Assembly: GCA_048940445.1 (NCBI GenBank)
Contig: JBHLON010000001.1
Coordinates: 64,001 to 128,000 of the forward strand
Length of the DNA stretch: 64,000 nt
Direction of reading: 5' to 3'
From: Promethearchaeota archaeon
GTDB taxonomy: Archaea > Asgardarchaeota > Lokiarchaeia > Sigyniarchaeales > SOKP01
The notes beneath the pieces were generated by a model that was not told where the DNA came from, did not search any database, and was given only the letters and a program-made list of their open reading frames with translations. Numbering within the stretch: position 1 is the first letter of the stretch; the number at the start of each line of letters is the position of its first letter. Below, one piece after another: positions 2,354 to 21,970 of the stretch. The translations under genes and the position numbers were made by a program.

Positions 2354-2368
2354 AGTTCCAAATTATTT

Positions 2369-3304: not shown

Positions 3305-3365
3305 ATGTTAATTAAAAGTCATACTTCTAAATAATCTTTTATAATTATTTATCAATAGTAATATT

Positions 3366-4169: not shown

Positions 4170-4174
4170 ATAAA

Positions 4175-5671
4175 TTAATTTCTAGGATACTTTCCATATA
4201 TTTGTAAGAATTCTCTATATTTATTCATACTATCAAGTACTTTTCCAGCAAGATCAAAATTTTCAAAAACAGGAACATTTCTATTAAGTAACCTAAGTTT
4301 AAATTTATAGCGGCTTTTATATTCTTCAAAACCCTCTGATATCTTTAGCATTACACAGATCATAGGTTTTGTACAAATTCTTTTTGCCTTTCCTATATAT
4401 GTAATAAACAATTTATTTAGATCAGTTCCTTTTTCAAAGCCTAATTTCCCGACCAAGGATTCTTCCAAATTTTTAAAACGCTCTGGATCTTTTACAAATA
4501 TTATAGCAGAAATATTTGGATCCTTATCTAATGTTAATATGGTACGATAATAAATATGAGGTAATGCCCCTTGTGCTCCTAGATCTATAGGATTATTAAA
4601 GTTAGTATTTACCTCATTTAAAAAACGCCCCATTTTATTAATTGTTTTTTCTGTCAATTTGGGAATTTTTAGATTATATTTCTCTAAGCTATCTCCCGCC
4701 TCTATAGTTGATCCTCCACCAATCCCAATTAAACCAATGTTTCTTGAACTAGGTAAGTGAGTCAATTTAAATGCAGATGCTAAAGCTGCCAGTTCTACGG
4801 AATTACTAACAAGTAAACAACCAGTTTGCTTTGCAACAGCATTCCATATTTTACTATCTCCTGCTAATCCTCCTGTGTGAGACAAAATTGCTTTTCGTGT
4901 TGCTTCTCCGTAACCAGCTCTCCATAATATTACAGGTTTACGGTTAAGACTACATTCTTTTGAAATTTTCATAAATCGGCGCCCTTGCTCTTGACTTTTA
5001 AGATTTTCAAGATATAATCCTATAATAGCGGTTCGATGGTCATATAAAAAATATTCCAAAAAATCAGGATAAGTTAAATCAATTGCATTCCCAATAGATA
5101 TCATTTTTGAAACTTCAACACCATAAGCATCAGCTAATTGAGCAACATTCACCGCCAAACCTCCTGATTGTAATATAGCACCAAAATTTCCTGCTTTTTT
5201 CGATTGAGCTCGACCAATATATAAACCTGCTTCAGGATTATAGACTCCCAAACAATTAGGTCCAATAATTCTAATTTGATATTTTTCTGCAATATCTAAT
5301 ACTTCCTTCTCAAGGTTTTTATTACCAGCTTCAGAGAACCCCGACGCGAAAATCGTCACAAAAGGTACTCTCTTTTGGCCCACTTCTTTCAAAATGTTAG
5401 GAACAAGATGTGCAGGAACTCCAATAATTACATAATCGATTGGTTTATTTTCTGGAATATCTAAAATTGAACCATAAACGTCTAATCCATAAAGTTTCTG
5501 ACCTTTTAAATGGGGATTAAATAGATAAATGGGATTTTTGAATCGATCGCTCATAATTTCGACAAAATATCCCCCTCCTGCTGGATTATACGATGCTCCT
5601 ATAATTCCTATAGCTCTTGGATAAAATAAAGGTTTAAATCTCTTCAAGATTAGCTCTTTAGATTCTAACAT
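4175..5671 (-). CDS. Acyl-CoA synthetase (NDP-forming) alpha-subunit-like, CoA-binding
   Basis: PRAIGIIGAS, ASGFSEAG, IIGPNCLG, QSGG, SIGNAID and SHTGGLAG (phospho-His) motifs. Confidence 0.88.
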   Translation of the reverse strand: MLESKELILKRFKPLFYPRAIGIIGASYNPAGGGYFVEIMSDRFKNPIYLFNPHLKGQKLYGLDVYGSILDIPENKPIDYVIIGVPAHLVPNILKEVGQKRVPFVTIFASGFSEAGNKNLEKEVLDIAEKYQIRIIGPNCLGVYNPEAGLYIGRAQSKKAGNFGAILQSGGLAVNVAQLADAYGVEVSKMISIGNAIDLTYPDFLEYFLYDHRTAIIGLYLENLKSQEQGRRFMKISKECSLNRKPVILWRAGYGEATRKAILSHTGGLAGDSKIWNAVAKQTGCLLVSNSVELAALASAFKLTHLPSSRNIGLIGIGGGSTIEAGDSLEKYNLKIPKLTEKTINKMGRFLNEVNTNFNNPIDLGAQGALPHIYYRTILTLDKDPNISAIIFVKDPERFKNLEESLVGKLGFEKGTDLNKLFITYIGKAKRICTKPMICVMLKISEGFEEYKSRYKFKLRLLNRNVPVFENFDLAGKVLDSMNKYREFLQIYGKYPRN

Positions 5672-5752
5672 TATGCTAAAAAAAGATTGTATTATAAGGA
5701 TTACAAAGAGATAGTTGTCTACAACTAAAATATTTTGTTAATAGGAAAATTT

Positions 5753-6472
5753 CTAACGCCCTAGTAATTCCTTCGCTAATTGAATGTCATCAGTTATAAT
5801 TCCATCAACTCCAAGAGCAATTAGTCTTTCTATATCATTCATTTCATTTACAGTCCAAACATTTACTTTTAAATCATTACTGTGGGCATAATTTACTAAC
5901 ATTTGATTGACCCCTCTAAAATGAGGATGAACAGCATAGAATTTCTTTTTAATCACTCTTTTTGTTGCCTTTTTTAAGTCTTTAGGGTTTGAAACCCTTT
6001 CAGAAATTAATGCACCTAATTTTAGTTTAGGTTCCAGTTTTTGAATTCTTAACAGTTCATTATGGATAAATGAACTAATAATACTTGATTCAATTAGCTT
6101 GGCATTCCTTAACATCTCTACAACTTTTTTTCCTATATCCTCACATTTTATTTCAATCTGCAATCCAATTTTTCCCATTGCTAATTCAATTACTTCTTGT
6201 AAAGTCGGAATTCTTTCACCATTTCCAATATCTAATTGTTTTAATTCTTCTAAAGTCATTTCTTCAATAGATCCTTCTAAACCAGTGATTCTTAAAATAT
6301 CATAATCATGGAAAACTATGATTTCACCGTCTTTAGATGCTTGAATATCAAATTCGATATAATCCGCTTGGAGCTCTATAGCTTTCTGAAAAGCTATTAA
6401 AGTGTTTTCTGGCTTAATTTTACTTGCTCCTTTATGTCCAATAACTAAGATTTTAGATTTATTTTCTGCCAA
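5753..6472 (-). CDS. Glycerophosphodiester phosphodiesterase
   Basis: GHKGAS..PENTL, IEFDIQ.SKDG..VFHD, IEIK, WTVN and DGIITD motifs. Confidence 0.93.
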   Translation of the reverse strand: MAENKSKILVIGHKGASKIKPENTLIAFQKAIELQADYIEFDIQASKDGEIIVFHDYDILRITGLEGSIEEMTLEELKQLDIGNGERIPTLQEVIELAMGKIGLQIEIKCEDIGKKVVEMLRNAKLIESSIISSFIHNELLRIQKLEPKLKLGALISERVSNPKDLKKATKRVIKKKFYAVHPHFRGVNQMLVNYAHSNDLKVNVWTVNEMNDIERLIALGVDGIITDDIQLAKELLGR

Positions 6473-6771
6473 TCTTTAATGTATCTCCTTAATCCATTAA
6501 GATAGAAAAACTATCAATTGTTAAATAGTTTTACTTAAATAGGTATTTATGATAAATTAGGGCTGTCAAACAGTATTTTTGTGTCTATAGGATTATCAAA
6601 GAATTAATAATACAATCATCTTGTAATCGAGAAATTTATATATCTAATTGAGTCACAATTCTATTGGTTTCCAATAAATTTATAAATCAACATTATTTTC
6701 TATATATTCTGATATTAAAATTCTACTAAAGAGTAAAGTTTTTAAAGCATTAAAAGGTGAAACACTGAGTA

Positions 6772-7026
6772 ATGAGATTTTGCCCCAACTGCGACAATAT
6801 ACTAATCCCCAAAAATAAAAAGCTGTTTTGCAAGGCATGCAACCAAGAGTTTGATTTAGATACAAATTCACCAGAGGATTATAAATTAGTCAAATCGATC
6901 AAACATGATGAGAAAGAAGTCGCACCGATTATAATTAAAGAAGGGCTGAAAGGAGAAAGAATTTCTGAACGAGAACGTAAAGCCTACGAGGACCTTTTCG
7001 ACATTACTGAAGCTGATGGCTATTAG
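6772..7026 (+). CDS. TFS/RpoM-like protein with N-terminal zinc ribbon only
   Basis: MRFCPNCDNILIP...FCKAC matches the N-terminal ribbon of TFS/Rpb9/C11; no C-terminal ribbon; SD-like AGGTGA upstream. Confidence 0.7.
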   Translation: MRFCPNCDNILIPKNKKLFCKACNQEFDLDTNSPEDYKLVKSIKHDEKEVAPIIIKEGLKGERISERERKAYEDLFDITEADGY

Positions 7027-7173
7027 CGCTACAGATTAGGGGATTTGAGTATGCCTAATCCGTAACTTCTTCCTAGTTTTGGTACAAAATATCCAAAAAA
7101 TTAATTAAAATTTAAACCTTTAAATTAATTAATTGAAATTATCATCTAGCTTTATTTTTGCAGGTTGATTATC

Positions 7174-7569
7174 ATGACTGAAGAAAAGAAAAAAAGATTA
7201 AAGGGTTTTGCGGGGATAGTAAGTAAGCAGGTAGAACCTTTAAATAGTATTGAGAAGTTTAAGGAAGATTTTAAGGATAGAGAGCTTAAAATTCTTTTAA
7301 ATGCAAAAGATGGAAAAATAGCTGCGCTATTGATTATTGATAAAGGAAGGATATATGTGGAGGGAATTGAAAATAAACCAAAAGAAAATATAAAGAAAAA
7401 GAATGTTGAATGGGATGGTCTATTGCAAGCAAAAACGCAAGTGTTCGTAGACTTATTAGGAGGAGAAAACGTTTCAATGGGTAATATTATTGGAAAAATC
7501 TTAACAGGTAGAATCAAAATTAGAGGGATTAAGAAAGTCTTAGTTTTGCTTGATTTATTCAAATATTAA
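7174..7569 (+). CDS. SCP2 sterol-carrier-like lipid-binding protein
   Basis: C-terminal 'FVDLLGG...GKILTGRIKIRG' resembles the SCP2 motif; ATG at 7174 preferred to TTG at 7165. Confidence 0.55.
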   Translation: MTEEKKKRLKGFAGIVSKQVEPLNSIEKFKEDFKDRELKILLNAKDGKIAALLIIDKGRIYVEGIENKPKENIKKKNVEWDGLLQAKTQVFVDLLGGENVSMGNIIGKILTGRIKIRGIKKVLVLLDLFKY

Positions 7570-7594
7570 GCAAGCTTATACTTATTTTTTAATA

Positions 7595-8026
7595 TTAAAT
7601 CTCTATTTTAAAAACTTTAATGATTGAGAGTAATTTTTCTTTCAAATCTTCTGGATTTTCATCTTGAATGGATTTTATTATTGCATTTTTATTTTGTTCA
7701 TTGATTTCGTTTTCTGGAAATTTATCGAGAAATGATCGTAAATAAATTATCTTTTTTGACGGACTTTTTTTAATATCTGAAATTAAGTTATCAAGAAATA
7801 GAGAAATTGAATTTGCATCCTCAGTTTCTGTTTCACAAAAATCCTCTTTTGAAAACCCTTCATCTTGCAAAATCTTATGTTTTTTAATTATATCAGTTGT
7901 TATTTCAACGAGCATCTCATTTCGTGTTAAACTTGTTAGTTCTGAAAGATTCTTTTCTATTTCTATATACTTTTGCCTGATTGATTTTATAATTGATAAG
8001 GTTTCTTTGAGCTTATCGTTTTCCAT
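7595..8026 (-). CDS. Hypothetical helical protein
   Basis: 143-aa ATG ORF filling the intergenic space; no recognisable motif. Confidence 0.6.
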   Translation of the reverse strand: MENDKLKETLSIIKSIRQKYIEIEKNLSELTSLTRNEMLVEITTDIIKKHKILQDEGFSKEDFCETETEDANSISLFLDNLISDIKKSPSKKIIYLRSFLDKFPENEINEQNKNAIIKSIQDENPEDLKEKLLSIIKVFKIEI

Positions 8027-8068
8027 ATATTAAATTACTTTTATTTAAATTTTTAAATTTTTCTTAAT

Positions 8069-8803
8069 TTGATTCTAGATAGTGTTATGAATTATCAAAC
8101 TAAACATAAAATAAATGAATTTCAAAAATTCATAGATTATAAATTTAAGGAACCTAAACTTTTGATTCAAGCAATGACTACACCGCAATTTGGAAATGAA
8201 AACAATCTACCAAATTATGAGATTTTGGAAACTTTGGGCGATGCTATTATCAAATTAATTTTTAGTTTAAAACTTTATAATAAAGGTGAACATGAGCCAG
8301 GTAAATTAACCAAGACTAAACAGTGCTTAGAAAGCAATCAAACTTTTTCTAAAATCGCTTCAAGTATGAAGTTAGAAGATTTTATACTTTCTTCAAATAA
8401 TCAAAATATTAAGGGTACCTCTATTCCTGCAGATGTTTTTGAAGCGATATGTGGAGCTATTTACCTTGATTCTGACTATAATTTAAGGGTTGTAGAAGAG
8501 AAAATTATTGATAAGTATATAAAAAGTTGGGATTTATTTATTGATGAATCATCTGACTTTTTAAAAAATGAATTAATGGAATTTTTACAAAATAAATTAA
8601 AATTTACCCCTAATATTGAATATGAATACGAGAAATTTGGGCCCGATCATGACCTTCGATGGCTTGCAAAAAATCCTAAGATTCTAGATTCTAATAATAA
8701 ACAAGCAATTAGGGTCCCAACTAATTTAAAATCTGGTAAATTCAAGACAAAAAAAGATGCTGAAAAAGATTTAAGCGAAAAAATTCTTAAAAAATTAAGA
8801 TAA
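8069..8803 (+). CDS. rnc: Ribonuclease III family protein
   Basis: YEILETLGDAII and ADVFEAICGAIYLDS catalytic signatures; divergent dsRBD-like C-terminus (KNELMEFLQ...GPDH...KTKKDAEK). Start may be ATG 8087. Confidence 0.9.
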   Translation: MILDSVMNYQTKHKINEFQKFIDYKFKEPKLLIQAMTTPQFGNENNLPNYEILETLGDAIIKLIFSLKLYNKGEHEPGKLTKTKQCLESNQTFSKIASSMKLEDFILSSNNQNIKGTSIPADVFEAICGAIYLDSDYNLRVVEEKIIDKYIKSWDLFIDESSDFLKNELMEFLQNKLKFTPNIEYEYEKFGPDHDLRWLAKNPKILDSNNKQAIRVPTNLKSGKFKTKKDAEKDLSEKILKKLR

Positions 8804-9019
8804 GCTTGAGAAAAACATCAAAAAATCAAAAAGCATCGAATTAATAAAACGATTATGTTCGTTAATTATTTGTTTTTTTAAGTTGTATATAATGGTTTAA
8901 TTTTCTAACCAGTTAGAATCTGAATATTTAAAAAATTAAAAGTATTCAGTTTAATCTAAGGATAGAGAAAAAGATAAGATCAAAATTTCATTATAAGATT
9001 AAATAAATATTTATAATTA

Positions 9020-10237
9020 GTGGTATCATCGATATTTAGTAGAATTAGGTATAAAGTTATGTCTGAAAACTCAAATGTTAAAAAAATGGCTGAAATGGAT
9101 GAATATGAAGAAGAAACGGGCAAGTTAGCGATATGGAAAGGAAAGGTAAGCAAAGATTTTAAAAAGTGGTTGGAGAAAAAGCAGAAAGATGAAATCAAAA
9201 GTCAAAAATTGGAAGCCTTATCTATATCTCGTGTAGAAAAAAAGAAACTTAAAGAGGATATCAAACACGGGCGAGAACTTGGGAAGGATTATGACCATCT
9301 AATCGTTGCAGACGGTTTACATAAGACTTATTTACTCGGCCGTACAGCTGTAGCTGCATTAAGAGGTGTAGATCTAACTATTGATAAGGGAGATTTTGTT
9401 GATATTATGGGTCCAAGTGGAAGTGGAAAAACTACATTGCTTAATTTAATCGGAGGTCTTGATACACCAACGAGAGGTAAGATTTTTTTAGAGGGTCGAA
9501 ATATATCTATGTTAAATGATAATGACTTAGCTGAAATTAGGAAAGAAAGGATTGGTTTTGTATTCCAGTTTTATAATCTTTTACCTCAAATGACCGCCTT
9601 GGAAAATGTTATGGTTCCATTGCATTTTTCTGGAAAGTTAAGCAAGAGAGGTAAGAAAAAAAAGGCTCTTGATTTATTAAGATTGGTTGAACTTGAAGAA
9701 AGAGCACATCATGCTCCTTCAGAGCTTTCAGGTGGTGAACAACAAAGAGTTGCTATAGCGAGAGCTTTTGCAAATGATCCAGCTATAGTCATTTTAGATG
9801 AACCCACAGGAGATCTCGATAGCAAAACAGGAGTCATGATCTTAAATCTTCTCAGAGATTTAAATAAAAGAGGGGCGACTTTTGTAGCAGTAAGCCATGA
9901 TGCTGCAGTATCAGAATTCGCTACTAGAGTATTCCATATGAGAGATGGAAAATTAACTCATGAGGGAAAAGTTGGTGGTTTAAAGGAGACTGAGGCAATG
10001 GAGACAAGAAGGAAGCAAGCGGCTGAAATAAATAAAGAAAAATGTAAAAATATGATTTTTAAATATTTATTCGCAAATCAAGGGAAAGTGGAGATAAAGA
10101 TAAATGATATAAAAAATAGTATCCCTATACAAATAATCACAAATTTACCAGAACATTTTAATGATATTTTATCAGAATTATTAGAAGAAAACAATATTAA
10201 CGGAAATTTAGAAGGAGACTTATTAATACTTCAATAA
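9020..10237 (+). CDS. MacB/LolD-type ABC ATPase with N- and C-terminal extensions
   Basis: Walker A GPSGSGKT, GFVFQFYNL, LSGGEQQRVAIARA, LDEPTGDLD and the H-switch. Likely start ATG 9059. Confidence 0.95.
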   Translation: MVSSIFSRIRYKVMSENSNVKKMAEMDEYEEETGKLAIWKGKVSKDFKKWLEKKQKDEIKSQKLEALSISRVEKKKLKEDIKHGRELGKDYDHLIVADGLHKTYLLGRTAVAALRGVDLTIDKGDFVDIMGPSGSGKTTLLNLIGGLDTPTRGKIFLEGRNISMLNDNDLAEIRKERIGFVFQFYNLLPQMTALENVMVPLHFSGKLSKRGKKKKALDLLRLVELEERAHHAPSELSGGEQQRVAIARAFANDPAIVILDEPTGDLDSKTGVMILNLLRDLNKRGATFVAVSHDAAVSEFATRVFHMRDGKLTHEGKVGGLKETEAMETRRKQAAEINKEKCKNMIFKYLFANQGKVEIKINDIKNSIPIQIITNLPEHFNDILSELLEENNINGNLEGDLLILQ

Positions 10238-10278
10238 TAATATATTCTAATATTTTAATCTACAAATTTTTAAGTGAA

Positions 10279-13272
10279 ATGCCAAATATTAAAAACGTTT
10301 TCAAGTATGCATTTAAAGATTTAAGTAAGCAAAAGGTAAGGACTAGCGTTGGTATAATTGGTGTTATGATCTCAGTGGGATTATTAGCGATAGTCTTATT
10401 TTTATCTGATTCTATCTCGGTAACTTATGTTGATTACATGGCGATCGATGCTGGAAATGCTGATATGAAAATTACTGTGAGGCATTATATCGGTGAACCA
10501 GAAGATAGATCTGAATACTTTAAGTACAATCCTCTAATAAGTTCTATTAAAACTAATTTTCAACAAATTGGTAATTATATTCCACGGATGAATCTGTGGG
10601 GGAATACGAATATCTCAGAAAGTGAAGAATCACCCATCCTCACAAACCAGAGAACACAAGTATTTATTTCAGGGATAAACTTTACTCTAGAAAATCAAAT
10701 AAATTTTGGAGCATTTGTAAAACCCGAAACAACCCAACTATTAAATTTGAAAACTTTACCATTAAATCACTGTTTAATTTATTACAAATTTAATGATGTT
10801 ATTAAATATGCAGTAAATGATTCAATTGAAATTCGAATGGGACTACGGTATGGTAATCAATCATTAGATAGGACGCAAAATTTCACTGTTGATGCTATAT
10901 TTGATTTTAACTTAAAATTCCCATTATACTATTCAAATCAACCTTTAATAGTAGTGGATATTGGTACCCTCTATTCCATTTTCGGTTCAGAAATATTTCA
11001 AGGTAGATGTAGCGAATTAATATTAACTTTTAAAAATGGAAATGAATTTTATGATGCGCGGGATCTAAGTGGATCCAAAGATCGCGTTAGAAGTTTAGCA
11101 GGAGATATTCGGTTATTAATAGGAATAAATCCTTATGATATTGAATTACCAAAATTAGAAATTCTTGGATTCTCAGAAATTTTAAGTGTTGGTATTACAA
11201 TCATATTTGTATTTGTATCAATGATTGCAATGCTAATATCTGGAGTATTAATAAATGGTTTACTGCAAACCTCCGTTGAAGAAAGAATTAGAGAATTTGG
11301 AATATTTAGAACGCTTGGAGCCACTAAAAAATATAATTTATCAATTGTATTAGTACAAGGTTTATTATTATGTAATTTTGGAACTATAGCGGGTATTTTA
11401 GGAGCATATCTCGCAACTCAATTTCTCATTGTTCCAATCGCCGAAGGTGTTGCATCAGAAAGTATTCCAGGATTGGCGGGGCATTTTGCTTTTTCTATAA
11501 GTTTTTGGTCAATTTTAATATCTTACTTAATGGGTTTAATTGTTGGACTAGTAGTGAGTTTATCTCCCGCATATAAAGTAATGAAACTTCAACTTATTGA
11601 ATCAATTCATCCTTATCGTCATGAAGACACACTTTATCATTTACAACAGAAGGCATCAATAAATTATAAATTAGTAATAATGGGAATTATACTAGCTGCA
11701 AATGGTGCTTTTGTACTTTTTGTCATTCCAAGAGTATTAATCTTAGCGGATTTAGCTTTAATGTCTGGAATTTTGATAGCTCTTTTAATAGTTTTCCTTA
11801 TTGGAACAACGTTAGCAGGATTAGGATTAATGCCTTTAGTTTTGAGATTATTTATAGTTGTTTTTCGTCTCTTTTCTAAAAAATTAGCCCCAGTTTACAA
11901 AATCTTTATTTTTCGATATGCTAGAAGAAACGCAACTACCACAATTATTTTTGCATTCGCCTTTTCATTTGTAATTTTTACAGCAGCAGCTGTTCAATTC
12001 CTTACTAATCAAGTTGAAATTGGAGCAAATTTATCATATGGATCAGACTTATTTATTGAAACAACTGGTTGGGAAGAAGAATCTGATCAAGGGGGATCTT
12101 TTGGATTTCAATCTAGTGTTCAAGAAAACTTTTTTCCTAGAGATGCTGATTTCAATTTAAAAACAGCTGCATATTCGATCGATCCTAATAGAATCCTAAC
12201 TACTGATTTTGAGGAAAATCTTTTAAGTATTGATGGTATTGAAAAAGTTTCATGCGTTATTGCTAGCCCATCACATTTAACACAAATATATTCAGTGGAA
12301 GGAAAAGAATTCACGGCAGAGATTGGAGATTATGCAGGGTTGTTCACTCAAGAAGTAACCTTATTGGGAATAGATGAGGAATATCCATCTACTATAAACA
12401 CAAACTACATAGAATTTACTCAAGGAAATCTAAATTCCTTTGATCAATTATTTGCATTAAGCATGGGAGATACTTGCATTATATCAGAAGGATTATCAGT
12501 GAATTTAGATTTAGGCATTAATAACATTATAAGAATGGTAATTCAAAGAGGAGATGAGAGTGAGATATATACTTTTCGAATTGTAGGAGTTGCTGCTACT
12601 ATGCCGGGATTTTCTCAATATTTTAGCAGATCAGGTGGATCTGCCAATATGGGAGGAGTTATGATATCACATACAAATTATTTAGATCTTATGAATATCC
12701 CTCCTATTCCTTATGTCGATAAAATTTTTATTAAACTTCATTCTAGCGCTTTAAGTACTTCGCGAGCCATCGGAGAATTCATCGAGGATAATTACGAACC
12801 ATACTATGATTTTGAATTAACTGATCTTAAAAGCACAGTTAGCTTACAGCAATCTTTTTTTTCAATATTAAATACTTTTTTTAGTATTACATTGGATGCA
12901 ACAATTATAATTTCTCTGTTTGGATTGTTATCTTCTTCTTACTCTACTATATTGGAAAGAAAGAAAGAGATTGGAATTATACGGACTTTGGGATTAAAAG
13001 GAAAACAAATCAATCATCTATTTACAATTGAAGCTTTAATAATAATGCTAAGTAGCGGAACTGTGGGGGTAATTGTGGGTTGGTTAACAGGACTTCTATT
13101 GTCTACATCTATAAATGTGCTATCAAATTTACCCAACAACCCAGTATTTCCCTTAAATAACATGATCATTATTTATGTTGTCTCAATTATCGCCACTTTA
13201 ATTGGTATGAAATTATTGTTGAGGAAAGTCCGTAAACAAAAGATAGTTGATATATATAGAGAGACTATGTAG
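10279..13272 (+). CDS. ABC permease, duplicated FtsX/MacB type (permease 1)
   Basis: Two FtsX motifs (SVEERIREFGIFRTLGA; ILERKKEIGIIRTLG) and two large extracytoplasmic domains. Confidence 0.92.
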   Translation: MPNIKNVFKYAFKDLSKQKVRTSVGIIGVMISVGLLAIVLFLSDSISVTYVDYMAIDAGNADMKITVRHYIGEPEDRSEYFKYNPLISSIKTNFQQIGNYIPRMNLWGNTNISESEESPILTNQRTQVFISGINFTLENQINFGAFVKPETTQLLNLKTLPLNHCLIYYKFNDVIKYAVNDSIEIRMGLRYGNQSLDRTQNFTVDAIFDFNLKFPLYYSNQPLIVVDIGTLYSIFGSEIFQGRCSELILTFKNGNEFYDARDLSGSKDRVRSLAGDIRLLIGINPYDIELPKLEILGFSEILSVGITIIFVFVSMIAMLISGVLINGLLQTSVEERIREFGIFRTLGATKKYNLSIVLVQGLLLCNFGTIAGILGAYLATQFLIVPIAEGVASESIPGLAGHFAFSISFWSILISYLMGLIVGLVVSLSPAYKVMKLQLIESIHPYRHEDTLYHLQQKASINYKLVIMGIILAANGAFVLFVIPRVLILADLALMSGILIALLIVFLIGTTLAGLGLMPLVLRLFIVVFRLFSKKLAPVYKIFIFRYARRNATTTIIFAFAFSFVIFTAAAVQFLTNQVEIGANLSYGSDLFIETTGWEEESDQGGSFGFQSSVQENFFPRDADFNLKTAAYSIDPNRILTTDFEENLLSIDGIEKVSCVIASPSHLTQIYSVEGKEFTAEIGDYAGLFTQEVTLLGIDEEYPSTINTNYIEFTQGNLNSFDQLFALSMGDTCIISEGLSVNLDLGINNIIRMVIQRGDESEIYTFRIVGVAATMPGFSQYFSRSGGSANMGGVMISHTNYLDLMNIPPIPYVDKIFIKLHSSALSTSRAIGEFIEDNYEPYYDFELTDLKSTVSLQQSFFSILNTFFSITLDATIIISLFGLLSSSYSTILERKKEIGIIRTLGLKGKQINHLFTIEALIIMLSSGTVGVIVGWLTGLLLSTSINVLSNLPNNPVFPLNNMIIIYVVSIIATLIGMKLLLRKVRKQKIVDIYRETM

Positions 13273-13290: not shown

Positions 13291-16200
13291 ATGTTAAGAC
13301 ATATTAATCGAAAGGTATGGATCATCTTTATTTCAATATTGTTTATATCTCCGATTTCGATTTTAAATTTTATAGCAATTGACTATGAACAAGTGTCAGA
13401 AGATATCCAAGAAGATATTAATTTAAAGGATTCAGATGTTGCTGGGACAGATCTTTATGCTGAAAAGATAAATGCATATGTAGCTGGTAATCAATCTGTA
13501 ATTAAACAATCACTTTTTACGAATGATACAAATATATTACCAAATTTTGACATTCGTGATCCTGCATTTTATAAATGCAACTTTCTGATAAGTGCATCCA
13601 ATGGAATAACCCCAAAGATTTTTCCAAGGATCTTAAATGAAAATGGCTTTTCTAATCAATATTCAGTCAGTTTTAATGGATTTTCTGGTTTTCTTTATTA
13701 TGATGAAATTCTTTCTGAACAAGAAGCGAAGTTAAGAGCTTCTAGAGCTCTTGAAATTATAAAGAGAAAATTCGCAATTGATTTAATAATGATTAATGTT
13801 TCAAATCCAAATTTCTTCCCTTTTGTAGGATATTATCCTGATTGGGCATTATTTTTTAAAGAAGTTACTGAAAATCTTCCCATGGATGGCTATTGGAAAG
13901 CGTTGGATTTAAACAGATTAACATCAAAAGAATATCTCTTAAATTATCATATTTCTTCCACTATTTTTACTCTAAATTCGTTTGATTTTTTCGAAAAAGA
14001 TATTTTAGCTTCAATTAAACAAGTAAATTTTAATTTAGATTCACTAGATTTATCTTTTGTTTATTCTTTAGAAATTGAAAATTTGTTTGAACAATTAACA
14101 GATTTAATTGTGGATTATGGAAGTATCTATGGCAATATTTCCCAAATTATAGGGAATAATCAAACTGTTACACAAGAAGATTTTGAACAATTTAGCACTT
14201 TTTTTGATATGTTATCATTATCTAATAAATCACAATATACTAGTTTAATGATACAATATGAAGGTAACGAGAGAGCTATTAAGAAGGTCGGCAAAAATCA
14301 ATATGAATTTAATTTGTGGGATGCTCTAAATTACAATGGAATTTCATTACGTCCAAGTGAAAAAATATTTATAGCATTGATAGGAGCTTTTATGAGTGAA
14401 ATTAATATAAATATACTATGTACTGATATAATTGATGTAACACCAAAATACTTCAGTCTATATGAGTTTCTATTAGAACAGGTTGAAACCTTATTATTTT
14501 ACGCTGGGGTGGACTTTGATTTAGATTTGGTAAGAGATTATTCTTTTAATTTATTTTGGGTAGATCAAGGTGGAATTAAACAGAGTTATATCAAACCTGT
14601 CAATTTAAATGATGACACAGATTTCATTAACTTTTTACCTGTTTTAGGGTTTCAAGGACTCCCCGGAATCCCAACCGGTATTTTTAACCCTGTTAAAGAT
14701 TTTAGAGTTAAATATCTTACCAATACTTCTGATTCAAATATGGTCATTAAGAAAGAATTATTAAATGATAATTCCTCCTTTGGAGTATCTAAAGATTTTT
14801 CATTTAACATTACTGCTCAAAATTTAAGCAATCATTCTGTTTGGGGTGTTAAAACATCTTTTCCTTTAAACCTTGGGGATATTTTTACATTTCTTGCTGG
14901 ACCATTCAGTGAAGACCTTATGGATGATATGTGGGAAATAGTGAAGATAGAATATCCAAATCAATACAATTCTTTAGAAGATTTCTTTAATTTTGATGAG
15001 GATCCACGAATCTTCTATTTTGATTCATTAGGGACGGGTTTAATTGATATGTATTATCCTAATATCAATAATATTACAAATCTTTGGCCATATAATAATG
15101 ATGCAGATAATGTTTTAGATATTTTGTTTGATTCATACCCAATCTATTTAACAATTCTCAATCCAGGTGAAACTAAAGATCTTTTTACGAATGAAAATAG
15201 CATTTGGAATAAGAACAATTGGAAATTAAACCCTTATCAAAAAATTTCTTATATCTATTCGAATCTTTCCATAGAAAGTTTTGATTCTTATACTGAATTT
15301 TATCGATTCAACTTTACTATTAAAGAAACGCCTCCTGTACTGCCTGTTATGATTTCAGGTAATTCTATTATGAATACTGATCCCTATATGGCATTATTAA
15401 ATGATAAGGATAGTTGGGTAATTGAATCAGAAGAGCAATATGTAGATCAGTATGATTTAGAACTTATTTTTATGTTTCAAAATCAAACTAATATAGACTT
15501 AAATAATAACTCTATAGAAAGAGTTTCTATTACGATCAATTATACAACTCCCCTCAATGTTATTTCCTTTGAAATATTTGATTATTCAATTGAGGAGTAC
15601 ATCGATATGAGTCCCAATTTAGATTCAAGAGAAAATGAGACTTCAACTTTTTCTTATACAAATGTAAATACAACTTTAAATTGGATGTTTGATCCATATG
15701 ATCAAAATAATTACACTCTTATAATACGCATAAAAGGAATGGATTCAAATCCTTTTAACATTTCTATAAATAATTTTGATGTCTTTTTCTCTTATAGAGA
15801 TATTAATGAATATAAGAGTTCAAGTTCAAGAGTCATTTATTCGTCACTAGCTGGGAACATTCAATATATCCGAAGGTCTAATTCAGTTTCACTTAGCACT
15901 GATAATATGAGCTCTATAATATCTTTTGCATATTTAAATAATTACAACTTAAAAGCAGGTGAAGTAAATACTTATAATCTATATTTCCAAAATATTGGAT
16001 CTGCTACTGCTAATGAGATTAATGTTTCAATTTTGATTCCAGGAATCATTAAGGATGGTAATAAATTCACAATAAGAGATAACTATCTAAATTATTATCT
16101 GCCTAGCCTTGCTCCATTCGAAAAAGAAGAAGTCAATTTCACTTTCTATACTCCCAATTCAGAATCTATTTTTAATGCAATAATTAGTTATGAGAATCCA

Positions 16201-17196
16201 ACATTCATTAATAACCTAAATAGCTCTGAATTAAGTTCAAGACCAAATGAGGTTAATATATTTGCTTTTATTGATTATATAGATTACTTTCCATTTATCC
16301 ATTCTTTAAGTATTTCTTATAATTTTTCAGATTCATATCCTTTAATTGGAGACTTGTTTAATTTATCGATTAACATGAAGAATGTCGGGAGATGGGACAT
16401 TCCTATATCTCAGATGAATATAACATTAGGTGATCAATTTGGAGATTTAATTTACAAGAATCCATCTCCCATCTTATCGTTCAATAATGTAAGCTTTAAT
16501 AGTGTAAAAACAATAAAGTTTGTATTAAAAAAGCTTGATTGGAAAGGTTATTTTTGCCCTTCTATTAACTTTATCACCAATAAAGACTATAGATTATTTC
16601 AAATTGCGAGGTCGTCCCCAATTATTCTTGGAAATATTTCTTTATTTATTTACAAAACTATAAGCAAAAATCAAATGGAAAGTGGAGAAGTAGTTAATGT
16701 AGAAGTAAAAGTCAGGAATATTGGGAATATTTGCATCAAAAATCTTACATTAAGTGATGTTCTCAGCTTTAATCAAATTTATTTTGATCTCGTTGAAGGG
16801 AGTCTTATTAAAAAGATTAGTTGCCTTAAACCTAACGAAACTTTATCAATGTTGTATAAAGTGAAAGCTAAGTCTCAATCTATTATTACATTAAAAGCAG
16901 CGAGTATTGAATACTACTTTTTAAGAAAATCAATTGTCATCTCGAATGAAATTGATGTAAAAGTGATAATTCCTAAGATAATTCAAATGAATTTTGTCCT
17001 CATACCTTTAATAGTTTCTTTGGTTGTTCTGGTTATTTCTTCATGGCAAGTTAGTTCCCAGAGATCAAAGAGACTTGAGCTTCGAAGGCTTGAGGCGTCA
17101 ATTCTCAGAGCTAGTCCAAGAGATTCAATTATTAAAATAAAAGGTTCATTGAAAGAGGAATTCGATAAAATAGGGCAAAGAGAAGAACGTAAATGA
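13291..17196 (+). CDS. Large membrane-anchored surface glycoprotein with C-terminal DUF11/Ig-like repeats
   Basis: N-terminal signal/TM; many N-x-S/T sequons; three modules of the type 'GEVVNVEVKVRNIG...LTLSD...LKPNET'; C-terminal TM and basic tail; AGGAGG upstream. Confidence 0.7.
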   Translation: MLRHINRKVWIIFISILFISPISILNFIAIDYEQVSEDIQEDINLKDSDVAGTDLYAEKINAYVAGNQSVIKQSLFTNDTNILPNFDIRDPAFYKCNFLISASNGITPKIFPRILNENGFSNQYSVSFNGFSGFLYYDEILSEQEAKLRASRALEIIKRKFAIDLIMINVSNPNFFPFVGYYPDWALFFKEVTENLPMDGYWKALDLNRLTSKEYLLNYHISSTIFTLNSFDFFEKDILASIKQVNFNLDSLDLSFVYSLEIENLFEQLTDLIVDYGSIYGNISQIIGNNQTVTQEDFEQFSTFFDMLSLSNKSQYTSLMIQYEGNERAIKKVGKNQYEFNLWDALNYNGISLRPSEKIFIALIGAFMSEININILCTDIIDVTPKYFSLYEFLLEQVETLLFYAGVDFDLDLVRDYSFNLFWVDQGGIKQSYIKPVNLNDDTDFINFLPVLGFQGLPGIPTGIFNPVKDFRVKYLTNTSDSNMVIKKELLNDNSSFGVSKDFSFNITAQNLSNHSVWGVKTSFPLNLGDIFTFLAGPFSEDLMDDMWEIVKIEYPNQYNSLEDFFNFDEDPRIFYFDSLGTGLIDMYYPNINNITNLWPYNNDADNVLDILFDSYPIYLTILNPGETKDLFTNENSIWNKNNWKLNPYQKISYIYSNLSIESFDSYTEFYRFNFTIKETPPVLPVMISGNSIMNTDPYMALLNDKDSWVIESEEQYVDQYDLELIFMFQNQTNIDLNNNSIERVSITINYTTPLNVISFEIFDYSIEEYIDMSPNLDSRENETSTFSYTNVNTTLNWMFDPYDQNNYTLIIRIKGMDSNPFNISINNFDVFFSYRDINEYKSSSSRVIYSSLAGNIQYIRRSNSVSLSTDNMSSIISFAYLNNYNLKAGEVNTYNLYFQNIGSATANEINVSILIPGIIKDGNKFTIRDNYLNYYLPSLAPFEKEEVNFTFYTPNSESIFNAIISYENPTFINNLNSSELSSRPNEVNIFAFIDYIDYFPFIHSLSISYNFSDSYPLIGDLFNLSINMKNVGRWDIPISQMNITLGDQFGDLIYKNPSPILSFNNVSFNSVKTIKFVLKKLDWKGYFCPSINFITNKDYRLFQIARSSPIILGNISLFIYKTISKNQMESGEVVNVEVKVRNIGNICIKNLTLSDVLSFNQIYFDLVEGSLIKKISCLKPNETLSMLYKVKAKSQSIITLKAASIEYYFLRKSIVISNEIDVKVIIPKIIQMNFVLIPLIVSLVVLVISSWQVSSQRSKRLELRRLEASILRASPRDSIIKIKGSLKEEFDKIGQREERK

Positions 17197-17221: not shown

Positions 17222-20200
17222 ATGAAAGTTAAGATAAAATGCATATATCTGTTAATTGTATTATTTATTTCTAATATTGGGCTATTAGCTCTACATTTTA
17301 ATATATATACCCCATCTACTCAGCTTTACTCTAATTCTAGCTCAGATTATCCTCAATTATCCGATACAGATAAAAAACCTGTCATAATTTTCCTTAATCA
17401 ATCATCATATGATCAAAATGCAAAAATTAGATTCCAATCTTATGGAGGAATACTAAAAAATGACAATGATTGGAATAATGTGTTTAATGGGATTTCTGGA
17501 TTTGCTGGTATAATTCCTATTTCAAACTTAACTGCGTTTAGTAGTGAATTTCCAGAAATGAATATTGAAACAGATGAAATTATTGAAACGCAAATGAATT
17601 ATGCCAGCTTTCAATCGGGAGCTAAAAATTCAACTTGGTATCTTAATGGATATAAAGGAAATACAGATTCTTCAATTGCTGTCCTAGATAGCGGTGTAAA
17701 TGCTGAACAAATTTATCTAAAAGATAAGATAGTAGGAGGCCAGAGTTTTGTTGATAAAAACTCATTCTTGGATGAATATGGTCATGGAACATTAATTTCT
17801 TCAATTATTGCAGGAACGGGGTCAGAACATTACAATTCAAATACACCATCAGTTATAAATTTGCATGGAAATTATACCCATGCAGAATTATTCGGTTATG
17901 ATCCAAGTCCCAGAAATTTTACGTTAAAAATTTGTTCATTCAATACCTCAAAATTAAACTCAAAGATAATTCTAAATTCATCATGGAACCTAATAAAGCC
18001 CGGTATTGATAAGTTTTGGTTTGAGTTATACTGTAATAATGACTTAGTAAACATTTCAGAACAAGTAATTCCAGATCAAGAAAATATAATTAGACACCAA
18101 GTTATTGAAAGCGGTTTAGGTGTATATGACTTTTATCTAAAGTATCATCGTCAAACTAACAAATTTCCTGAGTTTTCCTTTAATTCTCAGGCTTCAATCT
18201 TTCCTGAAGTTTATATAAAATATAATAATCATTTTACCGGTATTGCCAATAGTACTCAAATTCTATCTTATAAAGTAATAAATAGAACAGGTATAGGATA
18301 TACTTCTGATTTAATTTCTGCTTTAGGTAGTTTAATTCAGAATCGAAGCAAGTATCATATTGTTAGTGCTTGTTTAAGTATTGGTATGACTGGAAATGAT
18401 TTTGGAGCAATTAGTAAGGCAATCAATGAAGTAATCGATAATGGGATCATTGTTATAATTGCTGCTGGAAACTTAGGCGTAAAAGGTACAGAATCGACGT
18501 TAAATAAACTAGCATTGAAGAACAATGCAATCATTGTTGGAGCTATTAATGATGATGACCAAATTTGTTCGTATAGCGGAACTGGAAATGAATTAGATAT
18601 TGTTGCACCTGGTGGTAGTAGGTTAAAGAACCACAGAACGATTATTGGGGCAGATGCTCAATCCAATTTCTCAACTTCGGCAACTGGAACATCAATTTCT
18701 ACAGCTATTGTAGCAGCAGCAACAAATATTTTAATTGAGGTTTTATGGGGTAATTGGAGTGAGTGGGAGAATCAAAATTTTCAAGAGAGAGTAAAAATTA
18801 TTAAATCAATCCTTTTAATGACTGCAACTGAAACAAATAATCAAAGAGAAGAAGATCCTAGTACAAGTATTAATGAGAGTCAATACTCTCCTACAAGCTT
18901 CTCAGGCATATCAAGTAGTATAAAAGATGAGCATGAAGGTTATGGAAGAGTCAATATTCAAGTCGCAATTGATGCAATAAGTAAATCTTTAGAAGTTAAT
19001 AGTTCCATATATGATTATCTTTATAGTTCTCAAGAAAAACCACTAGGAAAACATGCTTTTGCAAGAAGAGTTAATTTAGTGCCGAATAGACAATATGTCT
19101 TCAATCTCACTAAAATTGATAGGACAGCTAATTTTGATTTATATTTATTTTCAAATCAATCTAAAAAAAATGGAGAACCAATAATTCTTCAAACTTCAAG
19201 GAAATGGTATCGAAATTCACACTATCTTTATTTCACTCCTAAAAATAATCAAACAGAATGTATAATTATAGTTAAAGCCTCTTATGGGTATGGAAATTTT
19301 ACTTTAAAAATTTCTGAAGTGAATAATATTTATTTTCCTCAATTGAAAATACCTGAAATCTCTTATTATGGAGGGTTAAAAAATACGACTGTAATGGGAT
19401 TTCAAGAATTTTTAGGAAGTAATCATCCCAAAAATTATTCAATAGATCGATACAGGTTCTATATTAATTATTATGACAATGATTCTTCTAATATACCTCC
19501 TCAAGAAGTATATGTGAGTATTGTGGAGCTATCAAGGAATTTTACTATGTCTCAACTAAATGAAATGGATACTAATTATACCGATGGAGTTTTATTTGTT
19601 AGTGAATATGTTGAGCTAAAAAAGCCTCGAACCTATCATTATTTTTTTATTGGGAGTGACGGTTCTCATAGAGGGAGATATCCAGAAGTTGATGAATTAT
19701 TTATTTCAATAGAATATCCCTCTGACACTAAAAAATTCCCTTATAGTCATAGCTTTAACAACGGTTTAGACAATTGGATTTATAATGGTACTGGATGGGG
19801 ATTATTATTCCAAAATAATTTTATTGATAATAGATCAGGAATCTATGCAAATAACTGGAGTTCAATGTATTTTGGGGCGTTTCATAATTACCCCTCAAAC
19901 TATTCTTATCAACCAGATTTAATTACAAAACCTTACCCGAATGGAACTCTTTATAGTCCCTTATTCGATCTTACTCAAATAGACAATCAATCGACAATTC
20001 CATTTGCGAGGTTTGGTTTGAGGACTAGTATTAATTCTGGAGATTTTATAATATTGCAGATTAGCCTTAATTGGACGAATTGGATAACTTTGCGGATTTA
20101 TACTAATGAAGAGACCGAATGGCATATTGAAAGTTTTAATTTAACCGAATATTTGGGATTTTTTATCCAATTTAGACTTATATCACTTTTAGATGACAAT

Positions 20201-21970
20201 TTTGATCCTATTAATTATAAAGGTATCATTCTCGATTACTTTGAATTAACAAACTATACAAATTCATATAGTCCCCAAATCAATTTTGATATTAATAGAG
20301 ATATTTCTTCAACAAGTGGATCAAAATTTGATGCTTATAGTATTACATGTACTTATAGTGATAAAGACAATAATTATCCTGAATTTATCTATATCGAGCT
20401 TGATGGAACTAATTATTCTATGATAAACTTGATTGGAAAATGGGATGCAAATTCTAGCATTAAATTTACTAGATCCTTATTATTAGGAAATATAGATAAT
20501 CGTACTTTTAGATTTCATACATCTGATGGACTACATTTGAATACTACTCCATGGTACAACGCAAATAACAATCTTTTTAATTTTATTAACCCTGTGCCCA
20601 ATCAATTTAATACTTATTATTATGAAAAGCAAATTGGATATAATTTTTCAAGCATGTCATTAGCCGAGTTCTATGTTTCAGGAAAACCAAATCCAAAAGA
20701 AAATACTGCTTGGTTTGGTAGTGATAATACTTGGCACCCAGTTTACCGTCTTGGTCAATATTATCTTTACGGTGGTATTGGGGAAAGCTTTGGTAGTTCG
20801 TCTCAAGGTTATGGTCCTAATTGGAATGCTAAATTAATAACCTATCCACTATACTTGAATGGAGAATATGACACTTATTTAAAATTTAATTTTGAAATCT
20901 CCTTACAAAATGAATATGGGATTTCGCAAGAAAATTTAGACAGTTGTATTGTTTCTCTATCTATCGATTATGGAGAAAATTGGATTATATTGAAGAAGTA
21001 TTTTTATGATAGTGAGACTTTGTCTGGAAATGAGTCATTAGATATTTCAGAATATGCAAATAAGGTTATTATGGTAATGTTTAGTTTAAAATCTAACGGT
21101 AATACTGTAGGGTTAGGATATGGATGGTTAATATCAGATATATATATAGGGTATGATAAAAATACAGATTTTATAAATCCAGATATCTATTTTATTAAAC
21201 CATTAGATCAAGAAATAATTAGCTCTATCTATCCCCTAATGGTATACATTTCTGATAATAACAAACTCGACAACTCAAGGATTTATATCTATATTGATGG
21301 AAACTTAATAGATAGACAATTGTATAGTTTTGATATTAATACAGGAATTTTAGGATTTAACTGGGATACTACTTATTACTCTGATGGAAGCCATCAAATA
21401 AAAGTAGTAGCTTTTGACGAGGAAGGCAATAAAGTTGAATCATCCATAGGTATATTCATACAAAATGGATTTTTCAATTGGAGATCGTGGGGCCCATGGA
21501 CATTAATTATTATAAGTATAATTATTATTAGTTTTATTTCCTACAAAATAGTTAAAAAGAGAGTTAGGATTAGAAAGAAAAGAATTATAGATAGACAAAA
21601 ATTAAAAATTGAACAATATGAAGTTGAGCAACTTTCGAAGATAAAACAAATTGATCTAGAGAAAGAAATTAAACTGCCCTTGACGTTACACTGCAAATAT
21701 TGTAAATCATGGTTCGAATCAGACAAATTTGATTATATTTGTCCTATTTGCGAACATGATCAACTATATGTGGCATATTATTGTACTAATTGTAATAATT
21801 GGTATTTTAAAGATGAACCTTCTGGGAATTATTATTGTAAAAATAAAGCGTGTCAAGGAATCAGATTGGTAAGGAGAGAAAGTGAGGAAGTAAAAGATTT
21901 ATTAGCAAAAGAAGGGATTTTATTAAGAAAATTTAAACATAAAAAGAATAGATTTAGTATTTTGGATTGA
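17222..21970 (+). CDS. Membrane-anchored S8 (subtilisin-like) serine protease with cytoplasmic zinc-ribbon tail
   Basis: IAVLDSG (Asp), GHGT (His), AAGN (oxyanion Asn), DIVAPG and GTSIST (Ser); beta-rich extracellular domains and an Ig-like domain; TM helix; CKYC/CPIC/CTNC/CKNKAC tail. Confidence 0.88.
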   Translation: MKVKIKCIYLLIVLFISNIGLLALHFNIYTPSTQLYSNSSSDYPQLSDTDKKPVIIFLNQSSYDQNAKIRFQSYGGILKNDNDWNNVFNGISGFAGIIPISNLTAFSSEFPEMNIETDEIIETQMNYASFQSGAKNSTWYLNGYKGNTDSSIAVLDSGVNAEQIYLKDKIVGGQSFVDKNSFLDEYGHGTLISSIIAGTGSEHYNSNTPSVINLHGNYTHAELFGYDPSPRNFTLKICSFNTSKLNSKIILNSSWNLIKPGIDKFWFELYCNNDLVNISEQVIPDQENIIRHQVIESGLGVYDFYLKYHRQTNKFPEFSFNSQASIFPEVYIKYNNHFTGIANSTQILSYKVINRTGIGYTSDLISALGSLIQNRSKYHIVSACLSIGMTGNDFGAISKAINEVIDNGIIVIIAAGNLGVKGTESTLNKLALKNNAIIVGAINDDDQICSYSGTGNELDIVAPGGSRLKNHRTIIGADAQSNFSTSATGTSISTAIVAAATNILIEVLWGNWSEWENQNFQERVKIIKSILLMTATETNNQREEDPSTSINESQYSPTSFSGISSSIKDEHEGYGRVNIQVAIDAISKSLEVNSSIYDYLYSSQEKPLGKHAFARRVNLVPNRQYVFNLTKIDRTANFDLYLFSNQSKKNGEPIILQTSRKWYRNSHYLYFTPKNNQTECIIIVKASYGYGNFTLKISEVNNIYFPQLKIPEISYYGGLKNTTVMGFQEFLGSNHPKNYSIDRYRFYINYYDNDSSNIPPQEVYVSIVELSRNFTMSQLNEMDTNYTDGVLFVSEYVELKKPRTYHYFFIGSDGSHRGRYPEVDELFISIEYPSDTKKFPYSHSFNNGLDNWIYNGTGWGLLFQNNFIDNRSGIYANNWSSMYFGAFHNYPSNYSYQPDLITKPYPNGTLYSPLFDLTQIDNQSTIPFARFGLRTSINSGDFIILQISLNWTNWITLRIYTNEETEWHIESFNLTEYLGFFIQFRLISLLDDNFDPINYKGIILDYFELTNYTNSYSPQINFDINRDISSTSGSKFDAYSITCTYSDKDNNYPEFIYIELDGTNYSMINLIGKWDANSSIKFTRSLLLGNIDNRTFRFHTSDGLHLNTTPWYNANNNLFNFINPVPNQFNTYYYEKQIGYNFSSMSLAEFYVSGKPNPKENTAWFGSDNTWHPVYRLGQYYLYGGIGESFGSSSQGYGPNWNAKLITYPLYLNGEYDTYLKFNFEISLQNEYGISQENLDSCIVSLSIDYGENWIILKKYFYDSETLSGNESLDISEYANKVIMVMFSLKSNGNTVGLGYGWLISDIYIGYDKNTDFINPDIYFIKPLDQEIISSIYPLMVYISDNNKLDNSRIYIYIDGNLIDRQLYSFDINTGILGFNWDTTYYSDGSHQIKVVAFDEEGNKVESSIGIFIQNGFFNWRSWGPWTLIIISIIIISFISYKIVKKRVRIRKKRIIDRQKLKIEQYEVEQLSKIKQIDLEKEIKLPLTLHCKYCKSWFESDKFDYICPICEHDQLYVAYYCTNCNNWYFKDEPSGNYYCKNKACQGIRLVRRESEEVKDLLAKEGILLRKFKHKKNRFSILD

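Follow-up and report, generated by a model that had tools for sequence, protein, structure and literature searches.

The DNA analysed here is a window of 64,000 nucleotides (nt) from a Promethearchaeota archaeon of the class Lokiarchaeia (contig JBHLON010000001.1, positions 64,001 to 128,000 of the forward strand). It has about 30% G+C and contains archaeal ribosomal protein genes (S15/S13, S3Ae). The open reading frame (ORF) at 17222-21970 on the + strand encodes a protease of 1582 amino acids (aa) of the S8 (subtilase) family, with no internal stop. The best explanation of this protein is a type-I membrane-anchored ectoprotease that projects from the single Lokiarchaeial membrane. Its gene is the fourth of five co-oriented, closely spaced genes, among which are those of an ATP-binding cassette (ABC) ATPase and of two permeases. 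We propose, at a probability of about 0.5, that the protein is an active ectoprotease and the hydrolase partner of this surrounding type VII (MacB/FtsX/YbbP-type) ABC machine, with its cytosolic tail used for docking. An earlier note, made from the letters of this DNA alone, had described a receptor-like subtilase with a cytoplasmic double zinc ribbon and suggested transmembrane signalling or inside-out regulated shedding. The operon context, of which that note made no use, is the most informative fact on the gene. In the literature on Asgard archaea and Lokiarchaea we found no paper on this protease-ABC system.

A five-gene cassette that is kept or lost as a unit

The cassette consists of the following genes (window coordinates, strand).

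9020-10237, +: ABC ATPase, 405 aa, with a LolD/MJ0796/MacB-type core at residues 93-321 (Pfam ABC_tran, E value 1.2e-36; PDB matches)
10279-13272, +: permease 1, 997 aa, a duplicated FtsX/MacB protein (two Pfam FtsX matches and MacB_PCD; hydropathy)
13291-17196, +: surface protein of type I, giant (1301 aa), whose CARDB and DUF11/TRAP_beta-like immunoglobulin (Ig) domains lie near a C-terminal transmembrane (TM) helix (Pfam, hydropathy, synteny in 17/17 genomes)
17222-21970, +: the S8 protease, 1582 aa
21994-24957, +: permease 2, 987 aa, paralogous to permease 1 at ~29% identity (two Pfam FtsX matches and MacB_PCD; hydropathy; synteny)

The order and orientation of ATPase, permease 1, surface protein, protease and permease 2 were the same in 17/17 syntenic genomes. 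These genomes represent two families of one Lokiarchaeial order, and one of them is a closed genome of 4.36 Mb. Permease 1 was seen in 16 of the 17 loci; the locus L033 begins inside the surface-protein gene. The flanking genes (RNase III, Ham1 and S15) were conserved only within the nearer of the two families. In a survey of 301 genomes of the phylum, the protease had full-length orthologs in this same order only, in 63/68 genomes of family f1 and in 7/7 of family f2; outside it the S8 core alone gave matches. The protease is missing from five f1 genomes, which are 92-100% complete, and none of the five has an ortholog of the surface protein or of permease 2 either. This joint absence shows that the cassette is retained or lost as a whole. 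Among the genomes sampled, every cassette seen included the protease.

Resemblance to type VII ABC hydrolase systems

The cassette combines the traits of type VII systems: an ATPase of the LolD/MacB/FtsE family, FtsX permeases with large outer domains, and a linked hydrolase gene. When compared with PDB sequences, residues 93-321 of the ATPase matched MJ0796 (6.8e-70), LolD (~1e-59), MacB (~1e-51) and YbbA (3.9e-44), and BceA as well. Hydropathy predicts 10 TM helices in each permease, with outer loops of ~260-300 aa between TM1-2 and TM7-8; in permease 1 the two outer domains measure ~260-285 aa. The PDB matches of the permeases were weak (~1e-6) and fell on YtrF, LolF, MacB and LolC, while YbbP was not significant. 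At the level of sequence, the relation of the permeases to YbbP is one of class and topology, not of close kinship.

YbbP, two YbbA and the periplasmic hydrolase TesA form a 2:1:1 type VII ABC hydrolase complex, which relies on mechanotransmission and offers the hydrolase molecules that have been extracted from the membrane (PMC12646458). The cassette shares with this E. coli system a LolD/MacB-family ATPase and a hydrolase gene alongside. Like YbbP (PMC12646458), both of its permeases are single-chain duplicated FtsX proteins with 10 (predicted) TM helices; one large outer domain lies between TM1 and TM2, the other between TM7 and TM8. It differs in having two paralogous permeases per ATPase gene and, in addition, a second giant surface protein. 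Its hydrolase is a 1582-aa S8 protein with a TM helix and zinc ribbons of its own, whereas TesA is a small soluble SGNH esterase. Its host, unlike that of YbbAP, is an archaeon with a single membrane.

A further parallel is offered by FtsEX with its partners EnvC, PcsB, RipC and CwlO. In these systems, cytosolic ATP hydrolysis controls an extracytoplasmic hydrolase through an FtsX-type permease, as we propose for the cassette. FtsX, however, has 4 TM helices and serves peptidoglycan hydrolases at the division site, whereas the hydrolase of the cassette is a membrane-spanning protease. Lokiarchaeia are not known to have peptidoglycan.

An archaeal subtilase with an intact active site

The protease is divided as follows; models were computed with AlphaFold2 (AF2), and rmsd is the root-mean-square deviation.

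17222-17308, +: signal peptide or signal anchor, residues 1-29 (hydropathy peak at 5-28 behind a K-rich N terminus)
17309-17626, +: pro-region-like segment, residues 30-135 (conserved in the ortholog alignment)
17627-18973, +: S8 catalytic domain, residues 136-584, with an insert at 202-334 (Pfam, similarity to Tk-SP, invariant tetrad)
18974-19732, +: PPC-like beta-sandwich, residues 585-698, and a further beta domain, 699-837 (AF2; 585-698 against 5sv5, Z 11.2, rmsd 3.0, 100 residues aligned)
19733-20260, +: MAM-like jelly roll, residues 838-1013 (LAST-MAM 8a28, Z 13.1, rmsd 2.7, 143 residues aligned)
20270-20593, +: Ig-like beta-sandwich linker, residues 1017-1124 (all-beta AF2 segment, inside multi-domain matches, with none of its own)
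20618-21169, +: second jelly roll, resembling CBM, the Eph ligand-binding domain (LBD) and the Reelin subrepeat, residues 1133-1316 (8jiy, a CBM, Z 12.6)
21179-21469, +: membrane-proximal Ig domain (Big_7), residues 1320-1416 (Pfam; 6tn6, Z 14.1, rmsd 1.6)
21497-21553, +: single TM helix, residues 1426-1444 (hydropathy 2.22; KKRVRIRKKR next)
21554-21676, +: charged juxtamembrane helix, residues 1445-1485 (AF2 helix over tail residues 3-39)
21677-21859, +: predicted double zinc ribbon, residues 1486-1546, with eight invariant Cys (alignments; AF2 predicted local distance difference test, pLDDT, ~80-85)
21860-21967, +: post-ribbon helix and conserved C-terminal K-rich ...FS(I/V)LD motif, residues 1547-1582 (ortholog alignments)

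The catalytic residues lie exactly where the earlier note had placed them, in canonical motifs: Asp156 at nt 17687 (AVLDSGV), His188 at nt 17783 (GHGT) and Ser491 at nt 18692 (GTSIS). Together with the oxyanion Asn417, found in an AAGN motif, they are invariant in 59/59 aligned orthologs. The Pfam model Peptidase_S8 (PF00082) scores 112.3 bits (cutoff 21.8; E 3.6e-32), and the match is split in two stretches by an insert of ~133 aa at residues ~202-334. Judged by its sequence, the protease is catalytically competent, with an intact active site. In our own reading of the alignment, residues 30-135 show an I9-like residue pattern; Pfam at E<=1 returned nothing for residues 1-143, the I9 propeptide included. 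Pfam likewise gave nothing for the insert or for residues 585-1140. In public annotation the family appears only as 'S8 family serine peptidase' or as hypothetical.

When a profile of 32 orthologs was compared with solved chains, Tk-SP of Thermococcus kodakarensis (PDB 3afg, 9ues) came first (E 5.7e-36), with subtilisins at ~1e-15. The best 60 solved relatives (E<=1e-10) were Tk-SP, subtilisins, thermitase and proteinase K, with no furin, kexin or site-1 protease chain among them. On the strength of these alignments, the catalytic domain is of the archaeal S8A type. Both Tk-SP and the protease are archaeal enzymes of the S8A type in which a beta-sandwich domain follows the catalytic domain. 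Unlike the protease, Tk-SP is small (539-aa chain), secreted and encoded outside any ABC cassette; it also lacks the 133-aa insert, every MAM-like, jelly-roll or Ig module, and both TM helix and cytosolic tail.

The earlier note had pointed to furin/kexin and site-1 protease as known type-I membrane subtilases with cytosolic tails, and a link to them found no support among the best 60 solved relatives. Pfam found no P_proprotein (PF01483), at E<=0.1 in the whole protein or at E<=1 in residues 585-830. With no P-domain, and with Tk-SP and subtilisins as nearest solved relatives, we rejected a eukaryotic convertase ancestry. It is true that furin/kexin (S8B) and site-1 protease show the same succession of signal, pro-region, S8 domain, beta-sandwich domain, single TM helix and cytosolic tail. 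The tails of these eukaryotic type-I subtilases, however, are short sorting peptides, whereas the tail of the protease is made of predicted zinc ribbons. The likeness is architectural only and probably convergent.

A paralogous S8 gene was found elsewhere in the same genome, adjoining a contig end (G000:C27:12854-14536, locus L002). Its product is 32% identical to the protease over residues 47-590, insert region included. The split S8 core therefore also exists outside the cassette.

Membrane topology

Two hydrophobic segments frame the ectodomain. The N-terminal one (residues 5-28) agrees with the signal peptide of the earlier note, and could be either a signal peptide or an anchor. The second, at residues 1426-1444, is the one strong internal hydrophobic segment and is followed on the tail side by the basic stretch KKRVRIRKKR, so that the TM helix and stop-transfer that had been read from the sequence are both present. 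The ectodomain carries 40 N-x-S/T sequons against 22.5+-4.3 in shuffles; for 21 of them, conservation reaches 80% or more of 32 orthologs. No sequon occurs in the tail (138 residues). Of the Cys residues, eight are spread over the ~1440 residues of the ectodomain and eight lie within 54 residues of the ribbons. Because of the basic flank, the sequon excess outside with none in the tail, and the distribution of Cys, we place the Cys tail in the cytosol, on evidence that is at the level of indicators and short of proof. The receptor-like type-I architecture with its tail inside was therefore well anticipated, since the indicators put the Cys tail inside, not outside. The protease is probably N-glycosylated.

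The zinc-ribbon tail is the best-conserved region of the protease

The four Cys pairs reported earlier in the tail (nt 21692-21853) correspond to residues 1491/1494, 1507/1510, 1521/1524 and 1539/1544. In alignments of 32 and of 52 sequences, these eight Cys are invariant, as are W1497, F1498, P1508, D1513 and Y1519. The eight-Cys pattern is kept in 120/120 database homologs listed and in 17/17 syntenic orthologs, including relatives from family f2 of ~30% identity; indeed, the tail was conserved in every ortholog examined. With a mean identity to the query of 0.69, the ribbon is the best-conserved region of the protease; the catalytic parts stand at 0.61 and the juxtamembrane helix at 0.26. 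Between the TM helix and the first Cys lie 49 aa in 92/120 homologs (range 41-52), and 51-62 aa in divergent lineages.

The AF2 model of the tail consists of a long helix, two hairpin ribbons and a short helix (pLDDT 80-85 over the ribbons, 72.7 overall). Each of the two four-Cys ribbons has two CxxC-type knuckles, with a beta-hairpin modelled between them. In Pfam all matches stayed below their cutoffs, the best being Zn_ribbon_6 (14.1 bits, cutoff 25, E 0.049) and Zn_ribbon_15 (16.4 bits, cutoff 28.9). PDB sequences gave nothing better than E 0.35, and Foldseek returned nothing for the tail model at E<=1e-3. A comparison of the model with 48,161 chains by VIA-align had the ribbons of PolD DP2 as its best match (Z 5.0). 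The Pfam families DZR (PF12773), DZR_2 (PF18912) and Zn_ribbon_6 (PF07191) resemble the tail in having two consecutive four-Cys ribbons with CxxC knuckles. The tail differs from these models by a signature of its own, approximately LxC(K)xCxSW(F/Y)...CPxC...(L/I)YxAxxCxxCxxW(Y/F), which among 1.84 billion representative sequences was apparently limited to Asgard sequences of the Lokiarchaeia type. As a helix with two zinc ribbons it has no known effector fold, and the signalling output that the earlier note had proposed for it found no backing.

A possible link between the tail and the ATPase

The ATPase bears extensions on both sides of its core. The N-terminal one (residues 1-92) has a MEEYEEETGKLAIWKG motif and a Lys-rich helix. 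The C-terminal one (residues 322-405, ~84 aa; …NLPEHFNDIL.ELIEEN…G.IEGE.LIL) is conserved throughout, like the ribbon. Neither extension has a relative in Pfam or the PDB. The FSILD segment that ends the protease tail is absent in genus g4 and in family f2, and the N-extension of the ATPase is missing exactly there. This co-occurrence in sequence is suggestive of a link between tail and ATPase.

We propose the following mechanism. The ATPase dimer would drive a conformational change in the 10-TM permeases, whose large outer domains would in turn supply the protease and the giant surface protein with substrates, by positioning, gating or feeding them. Precedents would be the action of E. coli YbbAP for TesA and that of FtsEX for cell-wall hydrolases. 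The ribbon tail would be a docking module and hold the protease to a cytosolic partner, always at the same depth below the membrane. A helix of ~37 residues and near-constant length (~5 nm if fully helical, by our own estimate) could hold the ribbon near the depth of the nucleotide-binding domains. The leading candidate for the tail partner would be the ATPase, as the bearer of family-specific extensions. As the same ribbon is also found outside ABC contexts, binding to some general cytosolic partner must be taken seriously as an alternative.

The ribbon module on other proteins

A search of 1.84 billion representative sequences with a profile of the ribbon yielded 90 matches. The best 40 of the 90 were mostly members of the protease family or fragments collinear with its C terminus, with the exception of a few repeat-rich or standalone proteins, for example P0126, P0133 and P0162. 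Weaker matches share the signature LHCxKCNSWYE...CPKC...VAMWC..C.KWFDVPEPG..NCPKC. Five of the ribbon proteins (P0185, P0193, P0212, P0191 and P0215) are small ribbon-tailed type-I glycoproteins with disordered linkers of 93-148 residues. P0179 is soluble, and combines an N-terminal VWA domain (Ssl1-like) with a RING-like Cys cluster and a C-terminal double zinc ribbon. Soluble proteins with a VWA domain and a C-terminal ribbon of the same signature are also encoded in other Lokiarchaeia-class genomes (L048:4550-6631 and L049:6252-8405). All three are of ~690-720 aa and belong to families without the protease cassette. The named sources of ribbon proteins are nearly all metagenome-assembled genomes of Promethearchaeota or Helarchaeota, the exception being P0191, from Candidatus Deferrimicrobium sp.

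The protease's own genome contains no second true copy of the ribbon, the weak matches being PolD DP2, a VWA-RING protein and generic ribbons. None of the other ribbon-bearing genes inspected adjoins ABC or FtsX genes. ABC linkage as a general property of the ribbon was accordingly rejected, three other ribbon genes being in unrelated neighbourhoods. Since the ribbon occurs on type-I and on soluble VWA proteins away from ABC genes, it is not ABC-specific. Shared as it is with other Asgard proteins, the ribbon is not peculiar to the protease; Lokiarchaeia-type Asgard archaea have it as a portable cytosolic module.

Some individual cases were also recorded. P0133 is a soluble protein of 206 aa with two copies of the module, and passes the cutoffs of both DZR and Zn_ribbon_6. 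P0136, a protease ortholog of 1687 aa, has an extra ribbon copy at residues 1596-1667. At the locus L047, a 2532-aa ORF without Pfam match (1344-8942, +) lies directly upstream of a P0193-like ribbon-tailed gene; the small type-I membrane protein encoded at 8997-10418 has the same ribbon tail, again giving a pair of a giant and a ribbon-tailed protein.

Alternative explanations

The simplest competitor is an autonomous ectoprotease for nutrition or surface remodelling. The ABC genes would then be co-regulated with it and mechanistically independent, the modules of the ectodomain would bind substrate, and the tail would serve oligomerisation, localisation or stability only. We hold this to be rather unlikely. 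It accords with the nature of the nearest characterised relative, Tk-SP, which is a degradative secreted subtilase, with an ectodomain made of generic binding modules (PPC, MAM/CBM-like, Ig), and with the presence, in the genome and in the phylum, of S8 paralogs that have the insert and the PPC domain without tail or cassette. What it leaves aside is that in 17/17 loci the permease genes enclose the protease gene, which is lost jointly with them, and that a ribbon more conserved than the catalytic domain, on a stalk of fixed length, would be needless for a passive anchor. The highly conserved cytosolic zinc module on a type-I protein could also belong to a receptor or to a system of regulated proteolysis. 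Events at the ectodomain would be relayed through the tail, or the tail would be cleaved off, and it would recruit or regulate a cytosolic effector in transcription, cytoskeleton or trafficking. The same ribbon on other Asgard type-I and VWA-RING-like proteins indeed suggests a common cytosolic partner. Yet the protein has no output domain, fold searches give generic ribbons only, no gene for a regulator or an intramembrane protease is conserved in the cassette, and the ABC context would be left without explanation. Such a role is distinctly improbable.

A machine for maturation or anchoring of surface proteins is less probable still. In it, the permeases would extract a membrane substrate or lipid, the S8 acyl-enzyme would cleave or transfer surface proteins, and the giant neighbour would act as scaffold. 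That it would make a functional analogue of sortase, archaeosortase or GPI (glycosylphosphatidylinositol)-transamidase is an equally slim prospect. YbbAP does hand membrane-extracted molecules to a hydrolase (PMC12646458), and two giant single-pass proteins are encoded between two permeases. On the other side, a Pfam scan of the surface protein for Gpi16/PIG-T gave no signal at E<=10, a substrate motif did not come to light, and no result bears on transpeptidation.

We therefore retain the protease as hydrolase partner of the type VII machine, and several points count against it. The ribbon, not being ABC-specific, may bind a general cytosolic partner, and in the AF2 model its fold resembles generic rubredoxin-type zinc ribbons only. 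Behind the joint absence of the ATPase N-extension and of FSILD stand only one or two evolutionary events, with phylogeny as a confounder. The cassette is missing from genus g3 and from parts of g6 and g7, and so is not essential to the family. Finally, we infer the physical complex, and likewise the ATP-dependent control, the tail partner and the substrate. Of the inside-out regulated sheddase or convertase suggested by the earlier note, the inside-out regulation is plausible because the gene sits in a cassette of the type VII mechanotransmission class; the signalling part is without support. In its most far-reaching form, the preferred reading would describe an Asgard surface machine in which ATP hydrolysis is relayed through two YbbP-like permeases and an ATPase-docked tail to the subtilase, so that proteolysis, or transpeptidation and anchoring on the giant scaffold, is gated from inside; we consider this extension very unlikely.

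Bearing on the Lokiarchaeial surface

Lokiarchaeia have no ordered surface layer, and their single membrane carries many unidentified 'complex surface proteins' (PMC9834061). With two giant ectoproteins (~1300 and ~1600 aa) and an ATP-driven motor, the cassette is a concrete candidate for part of this surface. A membrane-spanning subtilase with a cytosolic zinc module as its best-conserved part is unusual among prokaryotic S8 proteins. Should the tail link the protease to the ABC ATPase, the control of hydrolases by type VII systems (FtsEX, YbbAP-TesA) would reach into the archaea and include proteases. The ribbon tail, present on several type-I membrane proteins, is a portable cytosolic module that seems restricted to Asgard archaea, and its partner could point to a connection of membrane and cytosol that is specific to this lineage.

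Fold of the ectodomain

The AF2 model of residues 585-1425, built from a 60-row alignment that includes orthologs of ~28% identity, is all-beta, with a mean pLDDT of 89.7 and a predicted template modelling score of 0.74. Residues 699-837 form a further beta domain with no match of its own. Residues 838-1013 match not only LAST-MAM but also the MAM domains of meprin and RPTPmu (Z 12-13), and CBM and Reelin folds score similarly; the Pfam MAM model had no match in the protease, in whole-protein and in segment scans. Residues 1133-1316 match the gingipain adhesin and the Eph LBD at Z ~11, and contain a weak Pfam match to Reelin_subrepeat-B (E 4e-4). When the whole model was submitted to Foldseek, Reelin repeats came on top (E 2.6e-13). 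The Ig domain noted earlier is also recovered, since residues 1315-1425, scanned alone, match Big_7 at 27.2 bits against a cutoff of 24.1.

The earlier note had further described repeated jelly-roll-like blocks. Two jelly rolls are indeed present in the AF2 model; a repeat at the sequence level was rejected, as BLASTP between the two blocks was not significant (E 1.4), and their likeness is seen solely in the predicted structure. Because of the AF2 domain matches, the Foldseek match to Reelin and the weak Reelin_subrepeat-B match, we regard the two jelly-roll blocks and the Ig domain as real at the level of the predicted fold.

The giant surface protein and the upstream flank

Residues 1118-1208 of the surface protein score above the cutoff of the eukaryotic TRAP_beta model (E 5e-12 to 3e-13). 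The same residues also match DUF11, DUF7507 and BatD, and the TRAP_beta match may reflect a generic Ig-type similarity in sequence. The first 900 residues of the protein had no family match. Its neighbours in the ESM Atlas are archaeal surface proteins of the NPCBM_assoc/FixG_C type, at scores <=0.77 that make them leads only.

Directly upstream of the cassette, the window encodes at 8069-8803 (+) a protein with an RNase III domain and a weak match to the double-stranded RNA-binding domain. RNase III is uncommon in archaea. The gene stands at the flank of the cassette in family-f1 loci and not in those of f2.

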